From Dictyostelium discoideum (lineage: Eukaryota), in assembly GCA_000004695.1 (NCBI GenBank), contig CM000153.2, positions 4,224,001 to 4,288,000 of the forward strand: DNA of 64,000 bases. The letters run 5' to 3'. The translations under genes and the position numbers were made by a program. Below the pieces are notes generated by a model. The model made no database searches. It was not told the DNA's origin and saw nothing but the letters and a program-made list of their open reading frames with translations. Below, in pieces: positions 50,170 through 58,827 of this stretch (within the stretch, counting starts at the first letter, position 1; each line of letters begins with the position of its first letter).

Positions 50170-50640
50170 TGAATTAATTCGTTTTATTATTATTAACATT
50201 TCTTACTATCATTATTATCTTTATCATGGTATTCACCATTATCATCAGTTTCATTATCATCAGTTTCATTATCATCAGTTTCATTATCATCAATTTCACT
50301 ATCATCGATTTTACCATCATCAGTTTCACTGTCATCAGTTTCATTATCATATAAACGCACATTTAAGGAATTTGAAAATATTGAGAAAATTTTTACATTG
50401 TCTTAAGTTTAAGATTTTCTATTGTTGATTCTATTGGGAGAATGTGACAATCCAAAGTATCTTAAGGTAAATTATCATCAACACCATGAAATGTCAATGA
50501 AATGTTATAGTTTCCTTTTTTGAATTAGTTATTCGCATAAAGCTCACCTTTTACTTTTGGAGAATGTATAGGCAATTTTTATTTATTAATCGGATATGAA
50601 CTTTCATGAATGATTTGAAGTTTCTCTAATTCATTTTAAT
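50170..50640 (-). pseudogene. Degenerate paralogue (copy 1) of the 56420-57660 element. It carries a (TCATTATCATCAGTT)n repeat coding acidic E/T/D-rich repeats on the minus strand.
   Basis: Roughly 75-80% identity to 56.6-57.36 kb over several hundred bp (for example gaaaatattgagaaaatttttacattgtctt...tcatcaacaccatgaaatg). Minus-strand translation MKVHIRLINKNCLY... / ...GNYNISLTFHGVDDNLP*... parallels copy 2 but has multiple stops. Confidence 0.35.
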
Positions 50641-50774
50641 TAATCAAAAAAAAAAAAAAAATTTTATTTGATACTTTATTTTTAAAAGAATAAATAAAAA
50701 AAAAGATTAGATTATTATCACCATTTGATTCGTAATTAAATCAATGAATTCAATAAAAAGTGAATTGTTGAAAT

Positions 50775-50850
50775 TAATTTGAAAGAGATACAAATATTAA
50801 CTGGATTTAGTATCGAAATTAAATCTGTTGATCTATTAAATTATTAAACC
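50775..50850. repeat. Dispersed repeat family of about 75 bp, copy 1
   Basis: caaatattaactggatttagtatcgaaattaaatctgttgatctattaaattattaaa is about 85% identical to 53150-53235. Confidence 0.6.
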
Positions 50851-52055
50851 CAAATTCTTTTTTTTTTTTTTTTTTTTTTTTATAAAAATTAACACCTACT
50901 GAAAGTAAATTATATATTTAAAAAAAAAGAAAAAAAAAGAAATAAATTTTTATAAAAAAAAAAAAAAATAAAAAAAAATAACCAAATAATAAATCAATTT
51001 CTGAAAGAGATACCCATTCTAAATGGGGTTATTAATTTTTTTTTTTCTCAAATTTAATTCTTCATTTTTTTTTTTTTTAATAATCTGTAAATGGGTTTTT
51101 GTATGTTAAACTATTTTTTTTTAATATTTTTTTTAGTCTGCTATATGGTTGAATTTAACCTTAAAGAAGCACCAGATTATTTGATTTGATGGCACTTCTT
51201 TTCTTTGGTATTTAACTTAAATGTTAATTATAATTTTAATTTTTTTTTAATTTTATTGAAATATTAAAAAGTGTAAAAAATTTGAATTCAACATTTATCT
51301 TTAAAAATTGTCTCGGAATTTTACCTGATACAACACTTTTATTATCATGGCCATTTTTGTAAATGAAATTTTTTTTAATTTTTTAATTTTTTTTTTTTTT
51401 TTTGCCGAAATTGGTTTATTTTAATTAAAAGGGGTTAATTTTAGATTTCTTTTAAATTTAAAAGTAAATAAAATTCAATTAAATTACTATTTAGTATTTT
51501 TAAAATAAACTGTCATTTAAGATAGTTATAGATTTTAATAAAAAAATAACAATAAAAAAAAAAATATAAAAAAAAAATGAATTTAGAAGAGGAGCTACTT
51601 TTTTTAGAGCCACCACCAATAGCCAGTAATAATAATAATAATAGTGGCAGACAATAAAATATATAAGAGATTTGTTCCGCAACTATATTTAAAACAAAAA
51701 TTGATCCAAAAACCATTTTAAATTTAAATCAATATTTAACTCTATCCATTAAAACAATAAGTTCATCAATTGAAACAAATAATAAATTAAGTAAAGATCA
51801 AAAAAGAATTAATGAACACCAAAATAATCAAAAACTAATAAGTGATATTAATAATAATAATAATAATGACAATAAAAATAAACTCTATAGATTTTATAAA
51901 TAGTAGACATTTAAATTTATTACAATCATATTAATAATAATAATAATTATAATAAAATAAACTCTATAGATTTAATTAATAGTAGACATTTAAATTTATT
52001 ACAACCATTCCCATTGCCAACAGTGAATAATGATCAAAATAATAATAATCAAAAA

Positions 52056-52111
<56 letters not shown>

Positions 52112-53149
52112 TAATAATAATAATTAAAATAATAATAATAATAAAAATAATAATAAAAATAATAATAATAATAAAAATAAAAATAATAAAAATCCAAATA
52201 ATAAAAATAATAAAAATTTTAAATATATATATTTAAATTAAATTTATAAATATTTTTTTTTTTATTTTTCAACACAACATTTGATTCAACTTTAATTTCA
52301 CATTTACATTTTCTTTTTTTTTTTTACAAGGTAAATTTATAACAAAAAAGTAAAAGAAAAAAGTATGAGTATGGGTATACCCAGAACGACCAACAGAATC
52401 AATAGCGGAACAAACTTTTTGTTTTAGTTTACATCGACCATAGCATAACGAATGTCGAACTCTGGTGGATTATTAAAGATATGGGCCAATGGATGTCTTG
52501 CAGGGTATACGTTGATACAACTGACTTGGATACGATCAGTTTTCTCCTAACAAATCCAATGATAGATTGCGAAGTTTAAAATTTATTCTTCAAATAAACC
52601 ATATGGTTAAAAAGATTGTTACAGATTTACCACCTGTGATAACAATGGGTTGCATCAACCAACTTCAGAGCGTAGATTTCATGAATTCTCTAGGGTGGCT
52701 TGTTGAGATTTTGTCTCATTTTCTTTTTCCGAGACACCATTTACTGGATAGATTTGAAGGGTAAGAATTGATTCATGAGCTGCAATTGTTTCGATTGTGA
52801 TGCTGGTGATTTGATGTTGTAGTTGATGTTGCATTTGGTGCTGGTGATAATTTGAATGATTACTTGAGAATGGATTTAAAAAATTGAATAATTATTGAGT
52901 AAAAAGAGAATGTAAATGAAAATGAAAAAAAAAAAAAAAAAAAAAAATTTAGTAAATAATCAATCTAATTCGATTTTACATTGATTGAATTAAAATAGAT
53001 TTTATAGTTGTTATCTTACATAGATTTGAATATTTGTGAAAATATCTGTAAATATAAGAAAATCATTATTTTCAAACATTTACCACTGAAATAAAAGGTT
53101 TCAAGTTTTTAATTCTACATTTTACTGGTCCACCTCTTTAAACTTTCAA

Positions 53150-53235
53150 ATTTTTTGTTTTAAGATAAATTCAAATATTAACTGGATGTGGTATTGAAAT
53201 TAACTCTGTTGATCATTTTAAATTATTAAATAAAA
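53150..53235. repeat. Dispersed repeat family of about 75 bp, copy 2
   Basis: caaatattaactggatgtggtattgaaattaactctgttgatcattttaaattattaaa, in the same orientation as copy 1. Confidence 0.6.
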
Positions 53236-53479
53236 ATTCTTTAATAAAAAACACTGCAACCAAATATCAATATGTTTATTTTAATTTTTATATTATGGTT
53301 TTTATTTTTATATTTTTTTTATTTTTTATTTTTTAATTATATTTATTTATTTATGTATTTTTTTTTTTAATCTGTTTTTAAACGGCTTGATAAATATGAA
53401 TTATTTTTATTAAACGTTGGTTAAAACAGAATTAGAATGAGAAAAGTCACCTGAAACAAATAGAACTTTATCAAATCCA

Positions 53480-56319: not shown

Positions 56320-56392
<73 letters not shown>

Positions 56393-56419
56393 TGTTACTG
56401 GAGATGTTGATATTAGATT

Positions 56420-56536
56420 TTATTTTTTTTTACATGATTTGGTAGTTGATTTTGTTGTTGTATCTTTTTTTGATGATGGTTTTAGTTTTTTTAATTTTTT
56501 TTGATTATCTTCTTGTGATGATTTTCTTTTGTTTGA

Positions 56537-56592
<56 letters not shown>

Positions 56593-57660
56593 ACATTTCT
56601 TCATCGGTTTCTTCTTCACTATCGTTATTATCTTTATCATCAGTTTCGCTATGATCAGTTTCACCATGATCAGTTTCACTATGATCAGTTTCACTATGAT
56701 CAGTTTCACTATGATCAGTTTCACTATGATCAGTTTCACCATGATCAGTTTCAAAATCATTTTCATCAAAAATAAAACTATTTGAATTTAATGTATTACT
56801 AAAACCATCATTATCTATATTTGAATTATTAAAACCATCATCATTATTATTACAACCACTTCTTTCCAATTGATTGTATTGATCCAAAATATCAAAATTA
56901 AGTTGGTGTATTTCTTTTCAATATCTTTAATAATACTCAAACAAACATTTGGGTTTGAATCACCACAAGATATATCAGAAAAAGGTAATGGATCATATAC
57001 GCGATGGTTAGAGGCATTTGAAAATATTGAGACAATTTTTACATTGTCTTTGGTGTAAGACTTTCTATTGTTAATTCGGTCGAGAGAATGTGTCAATCTA
57101 AGTATCTAAATGGTAACTTATCATCAACACCATGAAATGCCATTGGAATGTTATAATTTCCACATTTGAATTGGTTATTCACACAAAATTCAATATATTC
57201 GTCAACTGTTAAGGTTGGATCCTCTAGTTTTGGAACATGTGGAGGTGAATTTTGATTAATTAATTGAATATGATATTTCATGTCTGATTTGATTGTATAA
57301 AATTTGGATGTAGATTCTGGTTGTGGGAAATTGTGGTAAGGAATGGAAGAGCACAAATAAAGGAGATATTGTGACCATTTTCAAAATAACCATGAAATTT
57401 GACCAATTTTGTTGGATCACAAATGGATCTTGATGAATTCAATTGACTTCTAATCAATATTGTATTTTCTTCATTGTACTCTTTGATATTTGGATCAACT
57501 CTTTCAAGGGAAGCGCGATTATTTGACCAATAATTTAATGAGAATTGCCACCACTATAAAAACAAGTTCTACCTGATTGATTCCAAATCCTTTCAAAAAA
57601 ATCTCTATCAATTTTATTGGCTTTTTTGTGACCTGTTGTACCACACCTCTATTGTAAAAA
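56420..57660 (-). pseudogene. Multiply frame-disrupted gene remnant (copy 2, the more intact one) with a C-terminal (ETDHS)n acidic repeat. Unknown family.
   Basis: Minus-strand pieces lie in three different frames separated by stops: RCGTTGHKKANKIDRDFFERIWNQSGRTCFYSGGNSH* / LNYWSNNRASLERVDPNIKEY...FHGYFENGHNISF...* / MKYHIQLINQNSPPHVPKLEDPTLTVDEYIEFCVNNQFKCGNYNIPMAFHGVDDKLPFRYLD* / ...NASNHRVYDPLPFSDISCGDSNPNVC... / DENDFETDHGETDHS(ETDHS)5.... No consistent GT..AG introns reconcile them. Possible upstream exon fragments with GTAAGT and GTATGT donors lie at 57840-58340. Confidence 0.35.
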
Positions 57661-57915
57661 CATAATTTATAATATTTTAAATCATAACTAAAAAATAAAT
57701 GAATTTTTTGAAAAAAAAAAAAAAATTAATAAATTAATAATTTTAGTATATATTAATTATTGTTATTACAACAACAACTATTATTTAGTGTTATTAAAAT
57801 AAATAAAATAAAAATATATCAATTTTAATATTTTTACATACCAAGATTCAAGTAAATTTGTTTTTAAAACTTCATCTCTTGTTACAATTCTATTTAATTT
57901 AAATTTTACTTTTTT

Positions 57916-57959
<44 letters not shown>

Positions 57960-58827
57960 AGCAAGTAATCTATATTACATTGATTTAATTTATAAATTTG
58001 ATTTTATAAATAAGAAATAACTTACAAAATTTCAATAAAATATCAATTCCTCTAGAAATGATTCTTTTTTCATAAAATTCTAAAATTAATTTTTTAAAAT
58101 CATTGGAACTTTTATTTGATAGGTATTCTTTTTTTTTTTCAATATTCTTAAAATATAATGCTTTACCACTTCGATCATTATCAGAAATTGATACTAAATT
58201 TTTTGTAATATTATTTTTTAAACATCTTCTTAAAAGTTCAAAAGGTTTATCATATTCAAATCGTGGATATATTTGAATATTTGTGTAAATAAATAGTTTT
58301 TGGTTAATAGAATTTTTATTTGAAAAAAAAAAAAAATAAAAAGAAATTTTTTTTTTTTATTTTTTTTTTATTTTTGTTTAAGAGTAGTTAATTTTTTTTT
58401 ATTTTTTTTATTTTAAATTCTTAAAATATATTTTTATCTATTTTTTTTTGATTAGATATTTTGATCTTCAAATAAAACACAAAAAAAAAATATTTATTAA
58501 ATAATGGATATTAAAAAAAGGAACTTTGGGGAAAAAGTTGAGTTAATTTGGAAAGATATATGATTAGATTTTTATTTAACAAAATATGAAGTTTTATTCA
58601 ATTTCTTTATTAAATATTTAAGCGATATTTTTTTTTTTTTTTTTTGATATTTTGGATATTTTGAAAAATTAAAATATTCAAATGTTATCATATTTCCCTT
58701 AAAAAAAAAAGGATTTTTAAAAAATGTGGGTTGTTTATTATTTGAAAATAATAATATCAAAAGATATTTTAAATTATTTTTTTTATTTTTTTTTTTTTTT
58801 TTCTGGAACCCAAAATCAATTTAAAAC

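Follow-up and report, generated by a model that had tools for sequence, protein, structure and literature searches.

The profilin II gene, proB, of Dictyostelium discoideum stands in an ~8-kb gene-poor island of short duplications and disrupted coding-looking segments, and the question raised by this locus is how such an island arose between conserved housekeeping genes. The stretch analyzed, referred to as the window, comprises 64,000 nucleotides (nt) of GenBank assembly GCA_000004695.1 (chromosome 4, contig CM000153.2, positions 4,224,001 to 4,288,000 of the forward strand), and positions are counted from its first letter. The island is a local rearrangement hotspot or decayed tandem array that is lineage-specific and has no evident present function beyond proB, which is its only conserved gene. 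It probably represents the remains of a head-to-tail array of a unit comprising proB and a second gene, here designated A, which was remodeled by deletion, inversion and, probably, gene conversion. The A family, the status of the annotated gene DDB_G0286319, a third copy of A, two repeats designated F and R, the inversion, duplication and turnover seen across species, and a second locus of like architecture are new in this work.

Repeat pairs were identified by DUST-masked self-BLAST of the whole window and by gapped local alignments calibrated against 200 dinucleotide-preserving shuffles (z), which were used in place of a plain repeat listing because the latter was swamped by low-complexity families. 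About five of the ~12 strongest non-trivial self-matches in the window are located in the island (Table 1). Three pairs proposed in a first-pass annotation, A, B, and C, are present where it placed them and in direct orientation, with z values from 17 to 86, and their identities, given there as ~75–85%, are slightly higher (85, 88, and 91%, respectively). By blastn, pair A is 85% identical over 177 nt; at the level of protein and repeats the similarity extends over 50170–50653 and ~56590–57300, with a deletion of ~250 nt in the first copy, A1. Pair C extends to ~53548–53752 with a 19-nt deletion. The inverted repeat F, the direct repeat R, pair D, and a tandem duplication within the second copy of A (A2) are features that the first-pass annotation lacked. 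The two copies of R bracket a 2,855-bp block containing A2. A further inverted match, E1/E2, is weak: self-BLAST aligns 51029–51200 with 55865–55691 (68% over 184 nt), and direct alignment of the two segments gives a z of only 3.6.

The window has a GC content of ~22% and low-complexity matches are plentiful, so that chance matches in AT-rich DNA, or an artefact of assembly, might be suspected. This explanation is excluded. The self-comparison that had been proposed as a check returned duplicated blocks far above chance AT-rich matches (z of 7.5–86), orthologous pieces are present in sibling species, and an independent long-read assembly of D. discoideum (L010, GCA_054883475.1) is collinear with positions 47055–64000 at 99.58% identity. 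In the island, the window and L010 differ solely at four non-coding homopolymer runs, which vary in length. Because L010 is collinear and the frameshifts and other disruptions of the island pseudogenes are identical in it, they are real and do not reflect errors of assembly.

A2 is the most complete copy of A and comprises, from 5' to 3', exon 1, intron 1, exon 2, intron 2, two HNH-fold modules (57428–57606 and 57001–57203), acidic repeats (~56600–56760), and an N/K-rich tail that contains the 219-nt tandem duplication. In A1, a tblastn search with the A2 product covers 50346–50653 with stops, and a hidden Markov model (HMM) of the module matches 50364–50450. A third copy, A-mid, is recognized because pair D and an exon-1 remnant mark it; its segment D1 is homologous to intron 1 of A2, and the intron (GTAAGT...AG) is common to both. 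In one of the related loci described below (L003), the orthologue of D1 abuts sequence matching exon 1 of A2 (58211–58291 in the window), and tblastn finds 'KYDKPF..RR.LK' at 13004–13060. An open stretch of A2 corresponds to DDB_G0286319, annotated in strain AX4 as a hypothetical protein of 62 amino acids (aa) with which it is 100% identical (P0061, XP_637826.1, Q54M05). Another assembly carries 207-aa and 181-aa models on A2 that splice around its frameshifts (gene model P0060). DDB_G0286319 is a fragment of the A2 pseudogene and not a gene, and its annotation is corrected here; no mention of it was found in the literature.

The spliced product of proB (124 aa) matches the Pfam family Profilin (PF00235) over residues 1–123 with E=1.5e-41 and is 79–91% identical to its orthologues in related species, in agreement with the earlier assignment of the second member of pair C (C2) to an intact proB. 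C2 comprises ~45 nt at the 3' end of the intron and the initial 133–176 nt of exon 2. The other coding-looking segments had been described as disrupted, which holds for A1, A2, C1, and a patch at 52.3–52.9 kb, in L010 as well as in the window. C1 lies 3' of proB, extends from position −55 of the intron to nucleotide 176 of exon 2, and carries frameshifting deletions of 1 and 19 nt; because it includes intron sequence, it was copied at the DNA level. A search of 5.8e9 proteins with profilin II did not return its own sequence (the best match was 91% identical), although DDB_G0286319 is in that collection.

The proB Island in Related Loci

The window was compared with six syntenic loci (L001–L006) reached through profilin orthologues. 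Among their assemblies are those of diverged isolates of D. discoideum, of possible cryptic sister species, of D. dimigraformum (here D. dimigraforme), and of D. firmibasis (PMC12745789); the assignment of an isolate to each locus is putative. The flanks of the island, which include gene X, a GH9 cellulase gene, and a glutathione S-transferase (GST) gene, are collinear in the relatives with ~76–93% identity where aligned. The interval from X to the cellulase is ~9 kb in the window as compared with 2.3 kb in D. firmibasis, and its content is different in every relative examined, which strongly supports the earlier suggestion of an old duplication or rearrangement hotspot. In D. firmibasis (L004), where a synteny check had been proposed, the compact interval contains only X, proB, one R, and the cellulase, and lacks A. 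The interval in D. dimigraforme (L006) is 5.5 kb, of which 3.6 kb between X and proB is unrelated sequence; R is single-copy in both of these species.

In L003, an interval of 8.2 kb contains A1, A-mid, B2, both arms of the inverted repeat F, a remnant of C1, proB in the orientation found in the window, part of A2 (A2', 81% identical and with stops), and a second profilin copy (proB'). The C1 remnant is at the same place but lacks the equivalent of 53574–53707. Located between A2' and the cellulase, 5' of A2', proB' extends from nucleotide 12 of exon 2 to 108 nt past the stop codon and is 87% identical over 468 nt. The two profilin copies (7417–7823 and 10001–10499) are 2.2 kb apart, with part of an A pseudogene between them; the copy annotated as a 101-aa protein has an internal deletion and may be a pseudogene. 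The order proB'–A2'–proB–C1 remnant–A-mid–A1 in this locus is that of the window, as is the orientation.

In L001 and L002 the interval is ~3.7 kb and contains an A1 remnant, a single B, and a 1.8-kb proB segment that runs opposite to both flanks. The same holds for the proB segment of L005, so that proB is flipped in three loci (around position 10000), and it is exactly in these that inverted copies of R of ~100–200 bp bracket proB. In all three R2 adjoins the GH9 flank and is inverted relative to R1. Depending on the phylogeny of the isolates, there was either one inversion or recurrent flipping. The 3' end of A1 (50170–50290) is kept in L001–L003, and in L001 the cellulase still has an F-like segment and R2 beside it. 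In D. dimigraforme and L005 the interval is taken up by unrelated DNA, and Pfam searches with the open reading frames (ORFs) that occupy it in L005 and L006 returned nothing. Near-perfect palindromes or inverted repeats are present in the interval in L006 (11743–11892, 159 nt) and L003 (14000–14062, 63 nt). The island is a small but well-documented case in which the surroundings of a gene essential to the cytoskeleton have evolved by local duplication and shuffling. Within the D. discoideum clade, repeated flipping and partial duplication have left profilin II functional.

The segment F1–C1–F2 folds as a long hairpin with a stem of ~117 bp (minimum free energy (MFE), −156.9 kcal/mol; z=−8.7). 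If the hairpin were transcribed, its products, small interfering RNAs that might spread into the profilin-derived loop, could regulate proB. The strong fold, a loop that holds a sense-strand proB fragment of 91% identity, and the presence of both arms in L003 are compatible with such a role, but the complementarity of the arms, which is 98/117 in the window (z=21), is reduced to 75/97 in L003 (77%, z=4.3), where C1 has been largely lost as well, indicating that there has been no purifying selection on the structure. A conserved functional hairpin was rejected on the basis of this decay of both arms and loop, and a regulatory role is highly improbable. A segment upstream of proB, F3, may be the source of F1 and F2; it shares with them an exact 21/21 core and flanking similarity (z=4–5), with cross-matches through L001 and L006.

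Two remnants of A were also found at an unrelated locus of a sibling isolate (L007; GCA_054859355.1, JBTAPG010000054.1). They occupy 7878–8423 and 11128–11229, with 73% identity to A2 over 590 nt, and have stops. The region 7300–12900 of this locus contains at least four full or partial copies of a FKBP12-like gene (7314–7738, 8712–9362, 10344–11016, which is inverted, and 12061–12236) and a 544-nt direct repeat (9823–10341 and 12327–12869, 92% identical). The remnants of A are interleaved with these copies: an FKBP' truncated in exon 4 is followed by A and then by an intact FKBP gene, all in one orientation. The FKBP fragments have three different extents. The module HMM detected no further A modules in six-frame translations of the window and L001–L007, and the A copies of the window, L002, L003, and L007 all contain stops or frameshifts.

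Formation of the Island

We infer that the island descends from a unit that would read A–B–proB–F–R on the plus strand, both genes being encoded on the minus strand, and that about three copies of it were formed. In an ancestor of the D. discoideum clade that had already separated from D. firmibasis and D. dimigraforme, an intron-bearing A with two HNH-fold modules would have become a neighbor of profilin II. The combined unit would then have been duplicated locally, through unequal or ectopic recombination or replication-based duplication, and different parts would have been deleted from each copy; the array would have been in place before the isolates of the discoideum clade diverged. Unit IV may be represented by A1 and B1, and unit III/II by A-mid, B2, the small F1–C1–F2 rearrangement, the intact proB, F3, and R1. 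Unit I may be represented by A2 and R2; its missing proB' would survive in L003 and its F'–R2 in L001. The direct and inverted repeats so formed would in turn have favored more deletions, flipping of the proB segment in certain lineages and, probably, gene conversion between copies. Selection would have kept one proB only; all copies of A are dead, and the remainder would be neutral filler.

Several observations support this model. The copies of A, B, C, and D all point the same way and follow one another as successive units would. In D. firmibasis A is absent, and X, proB, one R, and GH9 lie within 2.3 kb. L003 retains proB' and A2' together with proB, the C1 remnant, A-mid, and A1 in the order and orientation of the window, and the F-like segment and R2 beside GH9 in L001 are as expected of a lost unit-I copy of proB. 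A2 and A-mid share an intron, and C1 was copied with intron sequence. Inverted copies of R bracket proB in just the three flipped loci, and there are no transposon-like termini and no tRNA gene. A comparable duplicate-and-shuffle dynamic that is not driven by transposable elements is reported for the tgrBC locus of Dictyostelium (PMC12745789), and this is counted as support. The duplications had been described in the first-pass annotation as nested, which is only loosely right; the order A1, B1, B2, C1, C2, A2 and the uniform orientation are explained better by a decayed head-to-tail array.

Other observations weigh against the array. Many deletions are required, the right flanks of B1 and B2 differ, and the 1.5 kb at 51403–52899 matches nothing. 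The E1/E2 similarity is weak, both segments mapping to a single region of L001 (8821–9246), and the logic of the orientations across L001 and L002 is inconsistent. The paralogues are 85–91% identical, which is greater than the identity of orthologous non-coding sequence to L001–L003 (~71–83%); because the paralogues are closer than the orthologues, yet the copies seem older than the separation of these loci, gene conversion or independent events are needed, and gene conversion would be the likeliest cause of the high identity. Finally, the array leaves unexplained the presence of the second A locus, L007, amid local gene duplicates.

Nonallelic homologous recombination (NAHR) between repeats and tandem segmental duplication are the known processes that the locus recalls, in the inverted R copies around the flipped proB, the direct repeats around the A2 block, and a likeness of paralogues that is consistent with gene conversion. 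However, the repeats are short (~100–290 bp) and only 70–77% identical today, so that recombination between them at present is doubtful, and cause and consequence are inseparable. NAHR through E1/E2 was considered as the cause of the inversion and rejected, since the orientations in L001 and L002 fit it poorly; no exact order of events is claimed.

An alternative is that there was no ancestral unit and that each pair (A, B, C, D, F, and R) is a separate templated filler, introduced at a fragile, AT-rich, palindrome-prone site by nonhomologous end joining (NHEJ), microhomology-mediated break-induced replication (MMBIR), or fork stalling and template switching (FoSTeS). The copies are indeed short (70–500 bp) and local with unrelated sequence between them, C1 lies in the loop of a 117-bp inverted repeat that is a plausible site of breakage, and the interval in relatives contains further palindromes and, in D. 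dimigraforme and L005, unrelated filler. For the small F1–C1–F2 feature such an origin is plausible. It fits the larger retained units less well: the main pairs are all direct and arranged as copies of a unit would be, L003 and L001 keep larger pieces (proB', A2', and F'–R2) that resemble former whole units, and the intron and exon remnants shared by A-mid and A2 indicate that these are copies of a larger gene segment. As an account of the whole island, independent patching appears improbable.

The first-pass annotation had also raised the possibility that the island is the footprint of a mobile element that targeted the neighborhood of proB. A conventional transposon or retrotransposon that was inserted near proB and later excised or decayed would be in keeping with an island that is lineage-specific, gene-poor, and repeat-rich, and with the dispersal of A-family copies. 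The terminal repeats or target-site duplications proposed at 50.1 and 58.3 kb were not found (z of 0.2–1.7); terminal repeats, whether inverted or direct, are lacking at the ends of both the island and the A2 block, the 64-kb window has no tRNA gene of the kind that tRNA gene-targeted retroelements (TRE) usually target, and Pfam and homology searches detected no transposase, integrase, or reverse transcriptase. In addition, A has introns of the spliceosomal type, and R (~130 bp), the sole long flanking repeat, is native to the locus. Judged by termini, target, and coding remnants, an origin from the classical Dictyostelium transposons (TRE, DIRS-1, Skipper, DDT, Tdd, and thug) is very unlikely, and what stands of the suggestion is that A, a dead gene with an HNH fold, belongs to a dispersed family with a further copy at an unrelated locus rich in duplicates.

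The favored origin, local duplication of an A–proB unit followed by loss, has a close parallel in the tgrBC hotspot of the same clade (Holland et al. 2025, PMC12745789), where there are recurrent local duplications, partial fragments, inversions, and lineage-specific "unalignable" DNA between conserved markers, with no enrichment of transposons. However, tgrBC extends over 100–250 kb with dozens of genes, including polymorphic recognition genes that perhaps gain from diversification, whereas the island is 8 kb around a conserved housekeeping gene and contains a nuclease-fold pseudogene family that is unreported for tgrBC.

The A Family and its Relatives

The stitched product of A2 has no Pfam domain and no match in a word-indexed search of 5.8e9 proteins. 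In an index-free HMMER search of 1.84e9 representative proteins it gave 13 matches, two of which are Dictyostelium ORF fragments. The remainder have 27–45% identity and contain repeated modules of the pattern 'Q.G.C.YSG...SL[DE]R[IL]D..KGY...N..L.C...N', and most of these proteins, like the A2 product, have two of them. The beta-beta-alpha fold of the HNH domain was found in the A modules. A2 is matched (E=3e-10 and 3.5e-8) by PHROG families that carry the annotation endonuclease, HNH, or endonuclease VII, and these match its relatives with E values down to 1e-53, whereas Pfam HNH models do not match A2 and reach only E=0.03 with the relatives. Among NCBIfam models only TIGR02646 was matched (E=1.4e-4, below its cut-off), and a profile search of the Protein Data Bank (PDB) gave sub-threshold similarity (E ~0.07) to the HNH domain of Cas9 and to PacI.

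In an alignment of 19 modules, Cys16, Ser33, Tyr44, Asn48, and Asn57 are invariant, Arg36 is nearly invariant, and there is no conserved His. The motif 'SL[DE]R[IL]D' appears to correspond to '..DH[IV].' of HNH domains, which would place an Arg at the position of the catalytic general-base His; because there is no conserved His and this position is occupied by a near-invariant Arg, nuclease activity of A cannot be assumed. A is a dead, intron-bearing, two-module HNH-fold gene family that is newly identified here. No intact copy was found in the loci examined or among the 1.84e9 representative proteins, those annotated being ORF fragments (P0047/P0061, P0048, and P0060), and nothing specific to Dictyostelium HNH genes or to the proB island was found in the literature. 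The family is of wider interest because both of the A loci seen lie amid local duplicates of a neighboring housekeeping gene.

The relatives of A include free-standing phage and giant-virus genes of the HNH/endonuclease VII type (phrog_3322, phrog_3118, and phrog_1035, and the T4 Srd-like phrog_1400/4592), which have the same module pattern, usually paired, and the HNH fold. Unlike these, A is a nuclear eukaryotic pseudogene with introns of the spliceosomal type and long acidic and N/K-rich tails, and its identity to non-dictyostelid proteins is at most ~45%, over ~60 residues only. One relative, P0051 (288 aa), is an intact two-module homolog located at 6271–7137 of a metagenome contig from the European Nucleotide Archive (ENA; L008, k141_1045062) that is prasinovirus-like. 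Its neighbors are genes typical of giant viruses that resemble prasinoviruses or phycodnaviruses (P8_CR, P11_C, DUF5760, DUF5771, DUF5871, RNase III, and patatin).

Relatives that are typical of phages and giant viruses, in which such genes are mobile, suggest another origin. Here a selfish nuclease encoded by A would have cut in or beside small, highly expressed genes (proB and the FKBP12-like gene), and the repair would have introduced a copy of A along with a piece of the target; after many such events, the resulting clusters of A genes and target fragments would have decayed. The precedent is in yeast, where clusters of WHO elements lie downstream of FBA1 (Coughlan et al. 2020, PMC7282813). 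In these, a highly expressed housekeeping gene that is intact, together with its partial copies, is interspersed with genes and pseudogenes of a nuclease family, all in one orientation, the content varies among close relatives, extra copies are present at other loci, and the fragments need no open frame. The corresponding arrangement, a variable cluster of nuclease pseudogenes in one orientation beside a housekeeping gene with extra copies elsewhere, is seen in the window, L003, and L007: A is present at two or more unrelated loci, it is interleaved in the same orientation with copies of the housekeeping gene at both (proB'–A2'–proB in L003 and FKBP'–A–FKBP in L007), and the content varies among sibling isolates. 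The authors of the tgrBC study, invoking WHO elements, hypothesize that a nuclease is behind local hotspots (PMC12745789).

There are also clear differences from WHO. The WHO proteins are intein-like with LAGLIDADG and zinc-finger domains, whereas A has two HNH-fold modules. The WHO fragments are always 3' ends of FBA1 that begin at the cleavage site, whereas the fragments of proB and FKBP share no common boundary and vary in their position relative to A. Some WHO genes are intact and active, whereas the copies of A seen are all dead and the position that appears to correspond to the canonical His is Arg in all 19 aligned modules. The association is anecdotal, being seen at two loci only. Differences between profilins of the discoideum clade cluster in residues 12–60 and were considered as a possible trace of homing, but the same region varies in all dictyostelids, including distant ones, so that ordinary constraint would explain the clustering, which was rejected as evidence of homing.

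We consider a homing-like origin unlikely, and the resemblance to WHO a lead rather than a sign of membership. Rather improbable also is the more general proposal that A could be the relic of an unrecognized class of nuclear selfish elements in Amoebozoa, free-standing, intron-bearing, and of HNH fold, which homed beside profilin II and the FKBP12-like gene and duplicated part of the target, giving rise to clusters that would be analogous to those of WHO but based on another nuclease fold; if this were true, relatives that are still active could be responsible for hotspots of local rearrangement in further lineages of Dictyostelium. The A family provides a concrete candidate class for the question, posed by the tgrBC authors, of whether a locus-bound nuclease causes hotspots in Dictyostelium (PMC12745789).

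Feature Map and Neighboring Genes

The features of the island are listed in Table 1. The filler segment has no match in the related loci or in the rest of the window, and a tblastx search of 51380–53150 added nothing to the L003 matches already known. Its N-rich ORF corresponds to a 132-aa gene model in the annotation of one assembly; neither this ORF nor the exon of gene X matches Pfam. The GC-richer patch within the filler has stops in every frame and gave no Pfam match on either strand, no protein homolog in a six-frame search of 52290–52900, and no A module. A search of 48–60 kb against Rfam at E ≤ 1 returned nothing.

Table 1. Repeats, pseudogenes, and other features of the proB island, in window coordinates
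Feature	Position	Strand or orientation	Alignment	Remarks
Pair A	50366-50541 / 57012-57187	direct	150/175 identical, E=1.7e-48, z=71	
Pair B	50788-50860 / 53169-53242	direct	64/73 identical, E=5e-17, z=17	
Pair C	53572-53749 / 54436-54613	direct	160/176 identical, E=8e-59, z=86	
Pair D	52913-53006 / 57922-58008		z=10	
F1/F2	53325-53444 / 53919-53803	inverted	98/117, E=3e-26, z=17-21	brackets C1
R1/R2	55305-55438 / 58294-58432	direct	104/130 identical, z=7.5	confirmed by cross-species matches
A1	50170-50653	-		decayed 3' fragment of A; acidic 15-nt repeats, remnant of second HNH-like module, in-frame stops
B1	50788-50860			5'-ward of A1; L001 and L002 keep a single orthologous B beside their A1 remnant
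E1	51029-51402	inverted		tentative; weak copy of E2 (55865-55440)
Filler	51403-52899			1.5 kb, lineage-specific; N-rich ORF/gene model at ~51555-52105 (+); GC-richer, coding-looking patch at 52340-52880
A-mid	52900-53130	-		5'-end remnant of third A copy; intron-1 homolog D1 and exon-1 remnant '..FTNIQIY' followed by GTAAG
B2	53169-53242			copy of B1, 5'-ward of A-mid; orthologue in L003
F1	53325-53444	+		left arm of inverted repeat around C1; arm present in L003
C1	53548-53752	-		partial profilin pseudogene; last ~45-55 nt of intron and first ~176 nt of exon 2
F2	53803-53919	-		right arm of inverted repeat
proB	54216-54708	-		exon 1, 54687-54708; intron, 54569-54686; exon 2, 54216-54568 including stop
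F3	55039-55148	-		tentative; upstream of proB; weak likeness to F1/F2
R1	55305-55438	+		direct-repeat copy on proB side
E2	55440-55865			contiguous with R1 in relatives; inside block 54123-55868, collinear in L001, L002, and L005
A2 internal duplication	56122-56591	tandem		219 nt
A2	56130-58293	-		most complete A pseudogene; at least 3 frameshifts/stops
DDB_G0286319	57093-57281	-		open stretch of A2
R2	58294-58432	+		contiguous with cellulase upstream region; right edge of island

Elsewhere in the window, tandem paralogous genes are located at 40545–41477 and 41802–42722 (74% identity over 977 nt). Their ORFs, at 40827–41378 and 42098–42640 on the plus strand (183 and 180 aa), look like those of multi-pass membrane proteins and have the common C-terminal end '...NLFFFNHQNV'. 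A 90-nt inverted repeat is present at 6906–6994 and 7194–7106. In the GH9 cellulase gene, which starts at 58916, tandem repeats at 60488–60770 encode a C-terminal linker rich in Thr and Ser, and further tandem repeats, at 63670–63999, lie in the next gene downstream of the cellulase.

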